From a virus (lineage: Duplodnaviria > Caudoviricetes): a DNA stretch of 64,000 bases. The notes beneath the pieces are model-generated. The model did no database searches and was not told the DNA's origin. It saw nothing but the letters and a program-made list of their open reading frames with translations. A program made the position numbers and the translations under genes. The DNA is taken from positions 176,762-240,761 of the IMG/VR virus record IMGVR_UViG_2706796186_000001. The stretch is one strand, 5' to 3'. Every line of letters starts with the position of its first letter. Within the stretch, counting starts at the first letter, position 1. Below are positions 17,948-25,072 of this stretch, one piece after another.

Positions 17948-18376
17948 ATGAATACACTGTCTTTCGAAGCGGGTAAAGGGTTAAGCGTTAACGGACATCT
18001 GGTACCGGACACCAACAACCACCATTTTGAAAAGCTCTACCGCCGTATCGGGGTAGGGCGTAAGGTCAACCTGAAAATCACCAACGAGATTGCCCTCAAT
18101 GGCAACGTGGCGGCTTTAGGTCCGATGTATGGCTTCCGTCCAAGCCAAGACGCTGCTGCTGCCCTGTTGCAGCACGGTGAGTTTAGCAGCGGTGTGTACG
18201 CATTCCGTTTACTCGGTTCGCTACGTCGGGTGTCGAACAAACACGTTGGTCAGGGCATGACGCCAACCGTTTTACAAAGCGGTGAGATTATTGTCCTCGT
18301 ACATTCCAATCACGAATATAAGTCGGGTTTGGATTTCATGATTAGCTATTCCGAAGTGGAGAATGCAGATGTCTGA
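17948..18376 (+). CDS. Hypothetical protein
   Basis: 142-aa ORF after an intergenic gap. Confidence 0.7.
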   Translation: MNTLSFEAGKGLSVNGHLVPDTNNHHFEKLYRRIGVGRKVNLKITNEIALNGNVAALGPMYGFRPSQDAAAALLQHGEFSSGVYAFRLLGSLRRVSNKHVGQGMTPTVLQSGEIIVLVHSNHEYKSGLDFMISYSEVENADV

Positions 18377-19253
18377 TAAAGCTTACCCCGTCTTAAAGAA
18401 CTTTGAACGTGTCGATACGTGGAACACCAATTCAGACATTTATCGTCATGGTAATGTGCATCAGCAGTCGCTGAAAATGTATCGCCATCTTGGTGATCTG
18501 TGTGAAGGCGTCCAGAAAATGAAACAGCTGGATGTGGCCTCCGCGATGGGTAAGTTTGTGGTGGCGTTGGTCGGCGTGGCTTCCTTCGCAGGGGTCGATG
18601 CAGAGGAGCTGGATGAGCTTTACAGCTACGCAGGCAGAAAGGCTACGGCATGTACCCCAGCGCAAGCTGCGTGCAATCTGGTGCGTTCTACGACGTCTAT
18701 GGTCAACGATATCAACCAGTGGTTGTCTCCGGCGGGTACGCAGATGGCCAGAGCGATTGCAACGTCCTCTATCTGCGAAGTTTTCTGTTTGCTCAAGCAG
18801 AATGCTTCCTTGAATGCGGTGGTGTTAGACCGCACGATTGAGAACGCCACGAACTGTCTTCTGAAAAAGACCGGTAAGATGGACGAGTTCGGCATCTTCC
18901 ATCCCGAGGCAGCTGAGCCTACCCGCTTCGGCGGTGAAGTAACGGCTCGGGGCGAAGCGCTGTGGGCTAAACAGTTTATCCTCAACGGGTTGAAAGGACG
19001 GTTCGCCGAATTGACCGTTCGCTTCCAGTTTGAAGTCGTGGGTGATGACATCTCCGAGGTGATTGAGCAGGACATGAATGTCAAACTCAAGGAGCTGTTA
19101 GAGAAACATGTCTTGCGCAAGCCTGAGTACCGCCATCTCATGAACGACCGTAAGCCCGCAATCGTCGCGGTGAAGAACCATGATCAACTTGAGGTTCTCC
19201 CGAACGACGATCTCAAGGAACTGCTTAACGAATTAGAAAAGGTAACTGGCTGA
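18369..19253 (+). CDS. Degenerate MazG-like NTP pyrophosphatase domain fused to an unknown C-terminal domain
   Basis: [12 protein letters not shown]...[10 protein letters not shown]...[15 protein letters not shown] aligns by eye with the 22390 protein but lacks its acidic metal ligands. Confidence 0.5.
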
Positions 19254-20308
19254 TGAAACAGTATTTGGAATTGATGCACACCGTGTTGAACGAAGGTCAC
19301 GAGAAAGCTGACCGTACCGGCACGGGCACCATCTCTATTTTCGGGTATCAGATGCGTTTTGACCTGCGCAAAGGGTTCCCGCTGGTCACCACCAAAAAGT
19401 TGCACCTGCGATCTATCATCCACGAACTGTTGTGGTTCCTGAACGGCGACACCAACATCCAGTATCTGAAAGACAACAACGTCAGTATCTGGGATGAGTG
19501 GGCAGATGAAGATGGCGATCTTGGCCCCGTCTACGGTAAGCAGTGGCGTGCATGGGTTGCTGACAAAATGGTGTCTATTGATGACATGAACCTACGCCAG
19601 CATTTGGAAGACGAAGGGTATATCGAGCGTGACATGATGTCTATCGAAGGGGAGCATTATTTCCTTTACAGCAAAACCATCGATCAGATTCAGACTATCA
19701 TCGACCAACTGCGTAACGATCCTGACAGCCGTCGCATCATCGTCAGTGCGTGGAATGTGGGTGAACTTGACCAGATGGCGTTAGCGCCCTGCCATTCGTT
19801 TTTCCAGTTCTACTCTCGCCCGATGATGGGCAAAGAGCTGGATGCGTATTTGGCGGAGTACCTTAAAACCGATGCGCAGTTAGCCGAAAAACACGCCGAG
19901 CAAGTTGCCCTTTGTGAGGCTGACCCGGAAGGGGATCACGTTAGCACGCACATGTTCTGCCTGACCAACGATATACCGACGCGTGTACTGTCCTGTCAGC
20001 TTTACCAGCGCAGTGCAGACGTCTTCCTCGGTGTCCCGTTCAACATCGCTTCGTACGCTCTGTTGGTTCACATGGTGGCACAGCAGGTCAATATGGTGGC
20101 GGGTGATTTCGTCTGGACGGGCGGCGATACCCATCTGTACTCTAACCATCTGGAACAGGCCACGTTGCAGCTCTCCCGTGTACCGCATGATCTGCCTAAG
20201 CTCGTTATCAAACGTAAACCGGATTCCATTTTCGACTATAAGTTCGAAGATTTTGAAATCGTGGGTTACGAAAGCCACCCACCCATTAAGGCACCGGTTG
20301 CCATCTAA
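19253..20308 (+). CDS. thyA: Thymidylate synthase
   Basis: [51 protein letters not shown]; C-terminus IKAPVAI. Confidence 0.98.
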
Positions 20309-20317
20309 GGAACACGT

Positions 20318-20818
20318 ATGTCCGACAACGTACTGAAGTTTCCAGGTAAACCTAATGCACATCCAGTCGTTGTCGCGCCCCGCGAGCATCGCGCACACTT
20401 TCCTATCCACACTCGTGATGGGAAGGTGGACGCGTTTACAGTACCGGCGTGTGATATGTATTGGTGGGCGGCGATTTACGAACAGGTGGCGGCCACCAAC
20501 CCGTATTTCGAAAACGTCTTTTACTTTTACTCCGAACCTTACGGCTGGCAGAATCAATCCTTTACGAAACGTAAAGTGTCGTGTGAATTGACGATTGACC
20601 GCCGAACCCTGATAGAGATATTGAAAGCGGTGTCCTATACGCACATTCTGTCTCTTGACGGTTACCTGAACGATAACGATTACGAGATAGTCCATGACAA
20701 TGCCATCATGGTGTTGGCTGACGATTTAGAAATCGATTATGCGATGGGGATCTTCATGTCCCCGACAACGAACCCCGACCGGTTCATCATTAATTTCGTG
20801 GAATGCCATAATGACTGA
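20318..20818 (+). CDS. Hypothetical protein
   Basis: SD AAGGA; 166 aa. Confidence 0.7.
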   Translation: MSDNVLKFPGKPNAHPVVVAPREHRAHFPIHTRDGKVDAFTVPACDMYWWAAIYEQVAATNPYFENVFYFYSEPYGWQNQSFTKRKVSCELTIDRRTLIEILKAVSYTHILSLDGYLNDNDYEIVHDNAIMVLADDLEIDYAMGIFMSPTTNPDRFIINFVECHND

Positions 20819-21686
20819 CAAACTCAATAACCTGTATTTCTTCTCTGACCGTTTCTACACCATGCCGGGTGACAACTACTCCTTCGGTATTGTTGCTGCG
20901 AAAGACACGGCCGAAGCCAAACTGATGCTGGGCACCGAACTGGTTGATGGCCTGCCGCTGGCCACCACGAACGCAACCGGCCAGATTCTGTGTGCGGAAG
21001 AAATCCGTCACATCGAACCGCGTGCCGACAGCGTAGCGAAAACCGTGGTTGCTGACCTGTGGAAACTGAATGACGGCGTGGATGTTTCCGAGCGTGTGAA
21101 ATACCTGCGCGAAACCATTTCGAAAATGCAGGGTATTGACTGTAGCGTACTGGAAGTGGACTTCACCCGTTGTCTGCGTATTCCGGGCGGCTGTACCAGC
21201 ACCGGCAGTGACCTGTGGCGCATCATGGTGAAACACCCAGACTTCCCGAACACCGTACCGATCATGCTGTCTGCGCAGGGCGACGGTTCAATCACCGGTA
21301 ACGATGATGTGAACTTCACCAAACTCGGTGAAACCGAAGAGTACACCTACCACGAAAATGTGGATCGTGTGCTGACGCCTGAATGGCTCCTGCTGGACTT
21401 GTTGGAACAGCACGGCCTGACCCCAGAAGACTGGTACGTGATTGCCGGTACGGCGCGTGCAGCAGCCTATAGCGCTGCCCCGGTAGACGGCTGGGAAGAA
21501 GTGAACGAAGTGTATGGTCAGAATGAAAGTGCGCACGTTATCCGCTTCTGGCTGAACCCAGACTGGCAGAACCTGATTGTGGCGGCTGTGGCGAAAGTGG
21601 TTGAGTCCATGCCAAAAGAGCCGCTGCCAGAAAACCTCGCCGACGAACTGGCGGGTTCCGAATCTGCGGACGAAGCCGCAGAGTAA
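20811..21686 (+). CDS. Hypothetical acidic protein
   Basis: ATG 20811; codon usage typical of a well-expressed gene. Confidence 0.7.
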   Translation: MTDKLNNLYFFSDRFYTMPGDNYSFGIVAAKDTAEAKLMLGTELVDGLPLATTNATGQILCAEEIRHIEPRADSVAKTVVADLWKLNDGVDVSERVKYLRETISKMQGIDCSVLEVDFTRCLRIPGGCTSTGSDLWRIMVKHPDFPNTVPIMLSAQGDGSITGNDDVNFTKLGETEEYTYHENVDRVLTPEWLLLDLLEQHGLTPEDWYVIAGTARAAAYSAAPVDGWEEVNEVYGQNESAHVIRFWLNPDWQNLIVAAVAKVVESMPKEPLPENLADELAGSESADEAAE

Positions 21687-21708: not shown

Positions 21709-22161
21709 GTGTCTACGACTCTAATCAATTACGATTTAGTAGTGCAAGAACTTTCCAAGGGGTTGGTTGCCCTCGACAGCGAAACGGCGTTGCGTTGCAA
21801 TATGCTTCCCCATATCGCGCTCAGTGAGTTCCGCACCATTCGTTATGGTGCCGGACGCCAGAACGGGGTAACCGAACATGCTTCAAAATTAGCTGCGGAG
21901 CATAATGGCCCAGCACTGGTTCTTACGCATGCGGTGTCGTTACGGGACGATTTCATGTTTCGTGTCGAAGGTAACTTTCCGGGTAAGGGCAACATCACTT
22001 CGTTATGTGGGTACTTCCCCGACAATTGGCGAGTTGAGAAGTTCAGTCTCGTTATTGTTGATGAAGCCGGTTTCTTCTTTAAGAAATTTGGCTACGATAA
22101 AATCTATCGCAGTCTGGCAACACAAACGACTGACGATGTTGTGATTCACCTGATTAACTGA
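21709..22161 (+). CDS. Small P-loop NTPase-like protein (degenerate Walker A)
   Basis: GAGRQNGVT (Lys replaced by Val) and LVIVDEA Walker B; GTG start after AAGGTG. Confidence 0.5.
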   Translation: MSTTLINYDLVVQELSKGLVALDSETALRCNMLPHIALSEFRTIRYGAGRQNGVTEHASKLAAEHNGPALVLTHAVSLRDDFMFRVEGNFPGKGNITSLCGYFPDNWRVEKFSLVIVDEAGFFFKKFGYDKIYRSLATQTTDDVVIHLIN

Positions 22162-22169
22162 GGTTTGTA

Positions 22170-22334
22170 ATGTCCCAAGTAGAAAAAGAAGTCATCGCAC
22201 AAGCAGATACCACCACACTGGACGATTTGTTCGGGGGTGATATTCCGGGCGTGGATGAGAATGCAGTAGTTGAAGGTGGTGTTGATGCGGCCGCTGAAGA
22301 CGACAACTGTGCAGGCGGTGCCTGCAAAATTTAA
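22170..22334 (+). CDS. 54-aa acidic micro-protein ending in an NrdA-like C-terminal dithiol tail (CAGGACKI)
   Basis: Manual translation MSQVEKEVIAQADTTTLDDLFGGDIPGVDENAVVEGGVDAAAEDDNCAGGACKI*. SD GAGGT upstream and a hairpin downstream. Below the 60-aa cutoff of the ORF track. Confidence 0.8.
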   Translation: MSQVEKEVIAQADTTTLDDLFGGDIPGVDENAVVEGGVDAAAEDDNCAGGACKI

Positions 22335-22341
22335 CAAGAGC

Positions 22342-22375
22342 GGGTGTCCTTATGGACACCCCTATTTCATTTTTT
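22342..22375 (+). terminator. Probable terminator
   Basis: GGGTGTCC-TTAT-GGACACCC followed by CTATTTCATTTTTT. Confidence 0.7.
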
Positions 22376-22389
22376 AAGGACTATCAGAA

Positions 22390-23223
22390 ATGCAACAGAC
22401 TTTTGAGTTACCGATTGAACACAAAGCCATCATCCTGAATAGCGCTATCTTAGATTTCGTCATGCCTCAGTTGGCGGCTGCCGGTAAACGGATGTCTCGC
22501 ATTACGCGTCTGGCACTCAGCAGTGAAGGCCCACAGACGCTGGTTAACGGTTTTACCTTTGAAGGTGAACCGGCAGAATTCCACGCGATGTTGCGTTATC
22601 ACACCGCGCTCGACTTCCACAAAGAGCCGGTCTACCATAACCGCATCGTCCCGCTGTACCGTGTGTCACAATGTGTGGCCAAAGTCATTGGCTGGTCAAC
22701 TGACCGCGGTATTCTGGAAAACGGCCGTTGGGACTCACAGGGTACCAAGCTGTATGAAGAAGACGGTGAAGCCGCAACTGGCGTGGGTAAAAACAAAAAG
22801 CGTCTGATCATCGACGGTATCGGTGATGCGCTGGTTGTACTGGTCAACGTACTGGAACTGACCAGCATCGATGCGGCAGAAATTGCGCACATCTATCAGC
22901 TGGTTCGTGACACCAAAACGGTGGTGGATAACCCACACTACCATTTCCACAAGATGCGTAAGAACCTGACCGAAGTGGTCGATGTGGTTTACGAATGCGA
23001 AGCCATCGATTCGCCGAAGAAAGTGGAAATCGGTCGCTTAACGCACGACGAGCGTCAGCAGATGTTGGGCCATGCGCAGCAGGCAATCCATCATGCCAAC
23101 CAACTGGCACGCCGTTACGATTACTCGCTGGATGAGTGCTTCTCTCTGGCGTGGGATGAAATCAAAGACCGTAAAGGTTTCCTGAACGCTGACGGTGTGT
23201 TCATCAAAGAAGCCGACGCTTAA
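22390..23223 (+). CDS. MazG-like nucleotide pyrophosphohydrolase
   Basis: W..DRGIL, KLYEEDGE, DGIGDALVVL, ECFSLAWDEIKDRKG...GVFIKE, typical of phage MazG-like proteins. Confidence 0.8.
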   Translation: MQQTFELPIEHKAIILNSAILDFVMPQLAAAGKRMSRITRLALSSEGPQTLVNGFTFEGEPAEFHAMLRYHTALDFHKEPVYHNRIVPLYRVSQCVAKVIGWSTDRGILENGRWDSQGTKLYEEDGEAATGVGKNKKRLIIDGIGDALVVLVNVLELTSIDAAEIAHIYQLVRDTKTVVDNPHYHFHKMRKNLTEVVDVVYECEAIDSPKKVEIGRLTHDERQQMLGHAQQAIHHANQLARRYDYSLDECFSLAWDEIKDRKGFLNADGVFIKEADA

Positions 23224-25024: not shown

Positions 25025-25072
25025 ATAAAAAGACTACCTACTCCCGAAGGAGTAGGTAGCTTTATTTTTTTT
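25023..25072. terminator. Bidirectional terminator (conserved family)
   Basis: AAATAAAAAGA-CTACCTACTCC-CGAA-GGAGTAGGTAG-CTTTATTTTTTTT. Confidence 0.9.

Follow-up and report, generated by a model that had tools for sequence, protein, structure and literature searches.

Why should a phage that encodes no ribonucleotide reductase (RNR) carry a gene that ends like one? The question is raised by a 54-aa open reading frame (hereafter, the micro-ORF) of a jumbo phage, the last residues of which resemble the redox tail of class Ia NrdA. Textbooks describe the C-terminal cysteine arm of RNR which, to our knowledge, is known only as a part of the enzyme. In class I RNRs, a reduced cysteine pair on the flexible C-terminal tail re-reduces the active-site disulfide, the disulfide thereby formed in the tail is reduced by thioredoxin or glutaredoxin, and disorder of the tail is needed for interaction with these redoxins (PMC5704485). 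The original prediction held that the micro-ORF copies this tail and provides a diffusible redox shuttle that boosts host RNR in trans, and named as alternatives a decoy and the detached tail of a split phage RNR encoded elsewhere. We found this interpretation to be partly supported: the gene, its conservation, its NrdA-type end and its nucleotide-metabolism setting stand, and the target of the putative arm is where several readings have to be weighed.

Results

The micro-ORF lies in a block of nucleotide-metabolism genes

The window analysed here is the right-hand 64 kb (64,000 nucleotides) of a 240,761-bp genome rated 100% complete by CheckV. The genome belongs to the Machinavirus/SPN3US-like group of jumbo phages of Erwinia and Salmonella, and the locus is 95% identical to Salmonella phage pSal-SNUABM-04. 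We confirmed the 54-aa ORF, its own Shine-Dalgarno (SD) site and the downstream hairpin that had been predicted (Table 1). The SD site overlaps the TGA stop codon of the preceding gene, and the hairpin, which starts 8 nt past the stop codon of the micro-ORF, has an 8-bp stem with 6 G-C pairs and a 4-nt loop. The predicted product is as acidic as anticipated (pI 4.05; 13 D+E vs 2 K+R) and contains two cysteines in total, both among the final eight residues. It begins with a variable N-terminal third, followed by a mid motif IPG[VL]D ... VEGGVD and an 11-residue end, DDNCAGGACKI. The micro-ORF has no match in Pfam or NCBIfam, and a phmmer search against PDB sequences found nothing, the match being too short for HMMER.

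Table 1. Coordinates of the micro-ORF, its signals and its neighbors in the window.
Feature	Position	Strand	Remarks
MazG-like gene, head of the block	18363..19253	+	phrog_10269, E = 4e-129; MazG PHROGs, E = 3e-11
Thymidylate synthase ThyA	19253..20308	+	Same operon; so annotated in relatives; PF00303 in syntenic loci
Body, 291-aa phrog_10453 protein	20811..21686	+	Gene two places upstream of the micro-ORF
~150-aa gene, phrog_2586	21709..22161	+	Start probably GTG at 21709; between body and micro-ORF
Shine-Dalgarno GAGGT	22160..22164	+	GAGG at 22160-22163, 6 nt 5' of the ATG
Micro-ORF	22170..22334	+	ATG start, 54 aa, TAA stop
Tail codons DDNCAGGACKI	22299..22331	+	Cys codons 22308-22310 and 22323-22325; stop 22332-22334
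Terminator-like hairpin and T-rich run	22342..22376	+	Hairpin proper 22342-22361
MazG-like nucleotide pyrophosphohydrolase	22390..23223	+	phrog_7855, E = 5e-121; weak Pfam MazG match

The genes of this part of the window occur in the order MazG-like, ThyA, two unknowns, phrog_2586, micro-ORF and MazG-like, so that the nucleotide-metabolism cluster invoked by the original prediction does surround the micro-ORF. The phrog_2586 gene has no Pfam or NCBIfam match and belongs to no recognised endonuclease family. The longest ORF of the phrog_10453 gene, hereafter the body, begins at 20739 and overlaps the upstream gene; homologues begin at the MTDKLN... methionine (20811), which is therefore the probable true start and leaves positions 20739-20810 as an extra stretch. 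The sole true RNA library on the locus covers positions 22392-22561 only, inside the downstream MazG-like gene. Further downstream, a strong bidirectional terminator-like hairpin (25033-25060; 11-12-bp stem, T runs on both strands) separates the plus-strand nucleotide-metabolism block from a convergent minus-strand gene of 729 aa.

The micro-ORF ends like NrdA and is conserved

The end of E. coli K-12 NrdA, as read from NC_000913, is ...QDDGCESGACKI-stop. Compared with its DDGCESGACKI, the DDNCAGGACKI-stop of the micro-ORF matches at 8 of the 12 final residues, and 10 of 11 residues match DDGCAGGACKI, the form found in many bacterial and T4-like phage NrdAs, which bears out the claim that the tail of NrdA is copied here. 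As in class Ia NrdA, the cysteines form a CX4C pair at the very end of the chain, on a tail predicted to be flexible; disorder of this region was seen in the AF2 model of a fused relative described below. The micro-protein is not a thioredoxin-fold redoxin (Trx, Grx or NrdH): the spacing is not the CxxC of a thioredoxin fold, and such a fold would also be at odds with the predicted disorder.

An exact scan of IMG/VR for DDxCxxGACKI returned 68 loci, and in 68/68 a stop codon directly follows the motif. These loci are either ends of NrdA, including split pieces of 166-460 aa, or micro-ORFs; about 24 are free ORFs of 36-80 aa without an NrdA body, nearly all of which have their own SD site. Among 28 distinct micro-ORF tail sequences, a set that was selected by the motif itself, third codon positions vary freely while the residues are fixed: both Asp, both Cys, all four Ala, both Lys and three Ile codons were seen at the invariant positions. 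Given this choice of sequences, independent support for selection comes from synteny and profile hits, which include the variants SDEGCEGGACKI and DDESCPGGACKI, both of which keep CxGGACKI. Both cysteines are invariant among the homologues compared, so the constancy on which the prediction had staked itself was found. The motif VEGGVD is likewise conserved and is absent from NrdA. At the variable tail positions, hosts have CESGAC and phages C[AT]GGAC; the micro-protein does not track host NrdA.

In the same IMG/VR collection, many contigs of T4-like phages (L023, L025, L027, L029, L032, L039, L013 and L048) carry C-terminal parts of NrdA, 166-464 aa long, with the tail motif at the end. They look like split (genes-in-pieces) nrdA.

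Syntenic orthologues were found 5' of the MazG-like gene in related jumbo phages (Caitlin gp246, pEa_SNUABM_10, SPN3US_0234 of SPN3US and phiEaH2 gp153), spanning the genera Machinavirus, Seoulvirus and Erskinevirus. Their N-termini are divergent, and IPG[LV]D ... VEGGVD and the final eleven residues are conserved, as the predicted persistence of the motif in such phages demanded. The micro-ORF had been described as missed by the gene track; in relatives the orthologues are in fact all annotated, as hypothetical proteins, and the product matches three PHROG families whose function is given as unknown. The match to phrog_14561 spans residues 4-54 (E = 4.2e-31) and is thus essentially full-length, while phrog_24014 and phrog_38753 match the C-terminal half. 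A profile search of 5.8 billion proteins returned 265 relatives of 23-137 aa, and micro-ORFs in other lineages have SD sites comparable to that of the window. A literature search found no description of a free-standing NrdA-type tail gene, and no mention of SPN3US gp234 was found in the SPN3US literature searched.

Phages often gain and lose nrd genes, and the tail is of the same kind as the ends of NrdA, so the micro-ORF could be imagined as the dead remnant of a lost nrdA 3' end, or as a chance ORF. We consider this highly improbable. Conservation of the gene extends over no fewer than four lineages of phages and two families of bacteria, and every copy has an SD site of its own; variation at the invariant residues is synonymous only; and a remnant would not be expected to possess an additional conserved motif, VEGGVD, that NrdA lacks. 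Furthermore, no other remnant of nrdA was found in the genome, and the window contains a single instance of the motif with a stop codon behind it, against 0.00 expected from 100 shuffles. Judging from sequence conservation, the micro-ORF is a real, conserved gene, whose predicted product is acidic and intrinsically disordered.

Carrier phages encode neither RNR nor redoxins

Searches of the whole 240,761-bp genome revealed no large subunit of class I or II RNR (PF02867), no NrdB (PF00268) and no NrdD (PF13597), nor any glutaredoxin or thioredoxin. The nrdA body that had been reported missing upstream of the micro-ORF is therefore missing from the entire genome. The micro-ORF itself has no Pfam match and hence none to the RNR catalytic barrel (PF02867/PF00317) that marks NrdA, and no nrdA or other catalytic subunit lacking its tail was found in the rest of the genome. 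Because there is no catalytic body anywhere in it, the micro-ORF qualifies neither as an RNR subunit nor as a piece of a split RNR, and we reject the alternative of a split phage RNR encoded elsewhere.

This situation is shared by other carriers. PF02867 was detected in 0/8 carrier phages that are at least 99% complete (G000, G001, G003 and G010-G014, that is, the genome of this window and 7 further complete genomes), whereas all 5 phage records with the NrdA-end motif that served as a control scored strongly in the same search. Glutaredoxin and thioredoxin were absent from the complete carriers tested (0/6), and G000 additionally lacked NrdB and NrdD. Any RNR or redoxin partner of the micro-protein must therefore be encoded by the host.

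A host-encoded partner could be harmed as well as helped. The free tail might occupy the tail-docking site of host NrdA or tie up thioredoxin and glutaredoxin, thereby throttling host RNR in the manner of yeast Sml1, for instance so as to halt replication of the host or divert reducing power elsewhere. The likeness of the tail to NrdA serves this reading equally well, and Sml1 is said to compete with the R1 C-terminal arm, as Zhang et al. reportedly described in PNAS in 2007. Small, disordered RNR-binding inhibitors do exist, since Sml1 binds R1 and inhibits RNR (PMC11941123). However, the carriers lack an RNR and yet encode ThyA or ThyX, enzymes that need dUMP derived from RNR products, so that blocking the only RNR of the cell looks self-defeating. 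On chemical grounds, a reduced dithiol that arrives at the active site in its oxidised state would be expected to reduce the site and not to obstruct it, and steric mimicry alone would not require two invariant cysteines. These considerations make inhibition unlikely in our view.

The micro-ORF and the phrog_10453 body occur fused, split and apart

A search for longer relatives of the micro-protein revealed five clusters of fused proteins of 298-314 aa (P0123-P0127), one of which (P0123) is represented in a complete 237-kb phage (L049). These proteins are 36-55% identical to the body of the window (E 1e-55 to 5e-109) and continue directly into micro-protein sequence, the alignment reading ...DD[LM]FGGD-IPGLD...VEGGVD...CAGGACKI. 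The micro-protein aligns with their C-terminal ~45 residues, and unfused bodies, including that of the window, end just past a degenerate copy of the linker (NLADELAG...). Judged by these alignments, the micro-ORF is the detached C-terminal tail of the phrog_10453 protein encoded in the same operon.

Four states of the locus were observed. In the fused state, thyA is followed by a small gene, the body with its tail and the MazG-like gene (L122, L124). In the split-adjacent state (L125), a double stop is followed by a 58-aa micro-ORF and an identical terminator hairpin, and the SD context, ttaactgagg, is shared with the window. In the third state, the ~150-aa phrog_2586 gene is inserted between body and tail (the window, SPN3US, phiEaH2, Caitlin and L123). 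The fourth state is a tail with no detectable body, found in the complete carrier genomes G003, G010, G011 and G013. Synteny is identical between fused loci and that of the window except for the inserted gene. The phrog_2586 gene follows unfused bodies at all loci split in this manner and is missing from the fused ones; in this it resembles an inserted element. The body-less jumbo phages L012 and L015 carry it too, together with the micro-ORF. On the tree of the bodies, the fused state needs at least two changes and 0/200 bootstrap trees allow a single one, although the strongly supported branches alone are still compatible with a single origin of fusion. Taken together, the fused, split and tail-only forms look like the distribution of a portable redox arm.

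The body itself is rare, with five clusters at 50% identity among 1.84 billion proteins, and it has no neighbor in Pfam, NCBIfam or the ESM Atlas. The AF2 model of the fused protein P0127 combines a confidently predicted mixed alpha/beta body (pLDDT ~90, residues 1-270) with a disordered tail (pLDDT <50, residues 271-314). Comparison of the body fold with the PDB using Foldseek returned nothing at E ≤ 0.001, and the best score of an exhaustive VIA-align search (Z = 5.3) was within background. No cysteine is invariant in the body alignment, so that re-reduction of a disulfide within the body cannot be the purpose of the tail.

Repeated fusion to a body that is not RNR points to a partner other than NrdA. 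Accordingly, the arm could serve the phrog_10453 protein or another phage nucleotide enzyme instead of RNR: body and tail would form one unit in which the dithiol arm might, for example, reduce a bound substrate or cofactor, and the likeness to NrdA would reflect only the shared recharging partner, thioredoxin or glutaredoxin. The tail is covalently attached in at least five protein clusters, fused and split forms alternate among close relatives, and the split forms remain in one operon and share a terminator, all of which suits such a unit. Nevertheless, without an invariant cysteine the body has no disulfide of its own to be reduced, the four complete tail-only carriers have no detectable body to be served, and a body that matches no fold or family offers no enzymatic role that could be named. 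As detailed below, evidence from other phages falls on both sides, and we rate this possibility on a par with that of an inhibitor.

Free and fused tails occur in unrelated phages

In unrelated phages of ~60 kb, a lineage without relatives among INPHARED isolates, the free tail is followed by a dNMP kinase gene, with ThyX and dUTPase close by. The start codon of the micro-ORF and the stop codon of the 277-aa gene before it overlap (TAATG), an arrangement suggestive of a coupled pair, and to that extent one that favors a tail serving a neighboring phage protein. However, the 277-aa protein shows no homology to the phrog_10453 body (no BLAST match; hhalign probability 0.3%); its AF2 model has a mean pLDDT of 49. 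In two other contigs, a 123-aa protein (L052:5787-6155, L063:9894-10262), encoded two genes upstream of ThyX, carries the same tail in the form DDDCEGGACKI. Its N-terminal domain has no family match and represents a third, unrelated type, again in keeping with an arm that works for the protein to which it is joined. In L052, the gene is located between those for PolA and a 5'-3' exonuclease on one side and ThyX on the other. Considering the window, the ~60-kb phages and L052, a thymidylate synthase is thus found near the tail in three independent phage settings.

In some phages of ~220 kb, the micro-ORF is read as a putative 120-aa protein (L030:391-750 and P0025) because a small basic ORF located upstream is in frame with it. 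In L012, the small basic ORF and the micro-ORF are separate.

Neisseriaceae and Moraxella encode free tails in addition to intact NrdA

Free tails of 42-69 aa were also found in at least four genera of Neisseriaceae (Neisseria, Eikenella, Simonsiella and Wielerella), a bacterial distribution that is to be read as a lower bound. In N. meningitidis, the gene order is iscR-iscS-micro-iscU-iscA-hscB, and in L024 Pfam confirmed the flanking IscS and IscU. The corresponding micro-proteins (L074:6001-6210 in N. meningitidis, L024:3167-3292) are unannotated in some reference genomes. An internal ATG preceded by an SD site would give 42 aa, suggesting that the annotated 69-aa form of the Neisseriaceae probably starts too early. 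Two predicted proteins of 89 aa (P0117 and P0120) consist of an N-terminal fragment of IscU and a Neisseria-type micro-protein; they come from very short ENA metagenome contigs (<900 bp) and may therefore be artefacts of assembly or gene calling. In Moraxella cuniculi, a micro-ORF that ends in GACKL is flanked by an aroE-like gene and a gene for an acyl-CoA dehydrogenase.

The NrdA tails of these bacteria are intact (DDGCAGGACKI in N. weixii, DDGCANGACKI in M. cuniculi), which indicates that the bacterial micro-protein is an extra copy rather than a part split off from NrdA. A split bacterial NrdA, considered as a candidate, was ruled out on the same grounds in both species.

The position between iscS and iscU raises the further possibility of a small peptide with a general dithiol or metal-binding role. 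During Fe-S assembly, its CX4C end would act as a reductant of disulfides or persulfides, or else as a ligand of iron or of an Fe-S cluster; phage copies would use the same chemistry for another purpose. This location is shared by Neisseria, Eikenella, Simonsiella and Wielerella, the free-tail Neisseriaceae keep a normal NrdA tail, and in N. gonorrhoeae oxygen and peroxide regulate iscS and iscU together, both genes being repressed anaerobically and induced by peroxide (PMC3032703). Co-expression with a stress-regulated isc operon would also suit a regulator and, as such, the inhibitor considered above. The M. cuniculi micro-ORF, however, is outside any isc context, and the phage settings are those of nucleotide metabolism, not of Fe-S assembly. 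Furthermore, a likeness to the NrdA tail that extends over 11 residues far exceeds the need of a generic dithiol or metal site. We therefore regard a role of this general kind as quite improbable.

Discussion

Our observations are best accommodated, with a probability that we put at roughly 45%, by a dithiol arm that is recharged by host redoxins and acts most likely on host NrdA, stimulating it. The two cysteines of the micro-protein would alternate between the dithiol and the disulfide state; the disulfide of the arm would be reduced by host thioredoxin or glutaredoxin, as happens with the NrdA tail; and the reduced arm would pass electrons to a target disulfide, most likely the active-site cysteine pair of host NrdA. 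Where the phrog_10453 body is present, it would be a docking or helper domain and not a redox client. In this way the arm would help to supply dNTPs to phages that encode MazG together with ThyA or ThyX and lack RNR. What we infer from sequence and gene context is that the cysteines cycle, that a redoxin is the partner, that host NrdA is the target and that the effect is stimulation and not block.

The defining residues of the tail, its terminal position and its disordered context are all kept, so that the most economical assumption is that it has the same partners as the NrdA tail; host NrdA is favored as the target because it is the only known client of this exact tail. Also in support of an arm acting on host NrdA are the four carrier types with a nucleotide-metabolism context and the modularity of the arm, which is found fused, split-adjacent, split by an insert and alone. 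On the other side, in bacteria that have a free tail the tail of NrdA is intact as well, so that an extra one is not obviously needed for RNR, and the gene of the Neisseriaceae lies in the isc operon, away from the nrd genes. The attachment to non-RNR proteins and the failure of phage tails to follow host NrdA at the variable positions also count against it. An inhibitory role, or a target other than RNR, fits the data about as well as a shuttle that boosts host RNR.

A broader proposal would be a new class of foldless, diffusible redox carriers of 40-60 residues, in which a CX4C pair delivers electrons from host thioredoxin or glutaredoxin in trans. RNR-less phages of several lineages would use such carriers to drive host NrdA and thereby enlarge their dNTP supply, the Neisseriaceae would have wired the module into the isc operon, and the arm would exist free or on NrdA, phrog_10453 and other bodies. 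We advance this generalization tentatively and hold it to be doubtful as a whole.

What appears to be new here is the redox tail of RNR as a portable module, free or re-attached. An NrdA-type arm is found as a gene of its own in phages without RNR or redoxins, on a domain of unknown fold in their relatives, and within an Fe-S operon in Neisseriaceae. Should the arm act on host RNR, it would give a virus a new and very inexpensive means of tuning the host's rate-limiting step of dNTP synthesis, and would also provide a natural tool for the study of tail-mediated re-reduction, a process that is difficult to capture in structures. Should its target lie elsewhere, the NrdA tail would turn out to be a portable redox module of general use, with further clients. 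In both cases, a concrete and testable hypothesis becomes available for several PHROG families and for unannotated bacterial micro-ORFs, and the fused, split and tail-only series provides a clean example of a gene in pieces.

Among known systems, the closest is the class Ia NrdA tail itself (C754/C759 in E. coli; NrdA of T4-like phages). The two share the extreme C-terminal position, the acidic lead-in, the DDxCxxGACKI motif and predicted disorder. Unlike the NrdA tail, the micro-protein is not attached to an RNR catalytic body, its genome is without RNR, and it adds VEGGVD and a variable N-terminus. As to its genetic arrangement, the NrdA of Aeromonas phage Aeh1 reportedly comes in pieces, split by a homing-endonuclease gene, as Friedrich et al. 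are said to have described in PNAS in 2007. Both there and here, an inserted gene splits a phage gene, here phrog_2586, which is missing from the fused relatives. In contrast to Aeh1, phrog_2586 belongs to no recognised endonuclease family, the protein that is split is not RNR, and a split free of any insert exists (L125).

Sml1 resembles the micro-protein in being small and disordered, and the action of both would centre on the large subunit of RNR. It differs in that it has no redox cysteine pair and is an inhibitor, and no sequence relation between the two is expected. Finally, NrdJb of the split class II RNR of Pseudomonas aeruginosa (NrdJa and NrdJb) provides a precedent for a C-terminal electron-relay part encoded by a separate, adjoining gene (PMC5704485). 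NrdJb, however, is a folded domain, a cysteine-rich zinc finger that works with a catalytic subunit of RNR, whereas the micro-protein is a 54-aa peptide predicted to be disordered, the body from which it is detached is not RNR, and some genomes carry the tail without the body.
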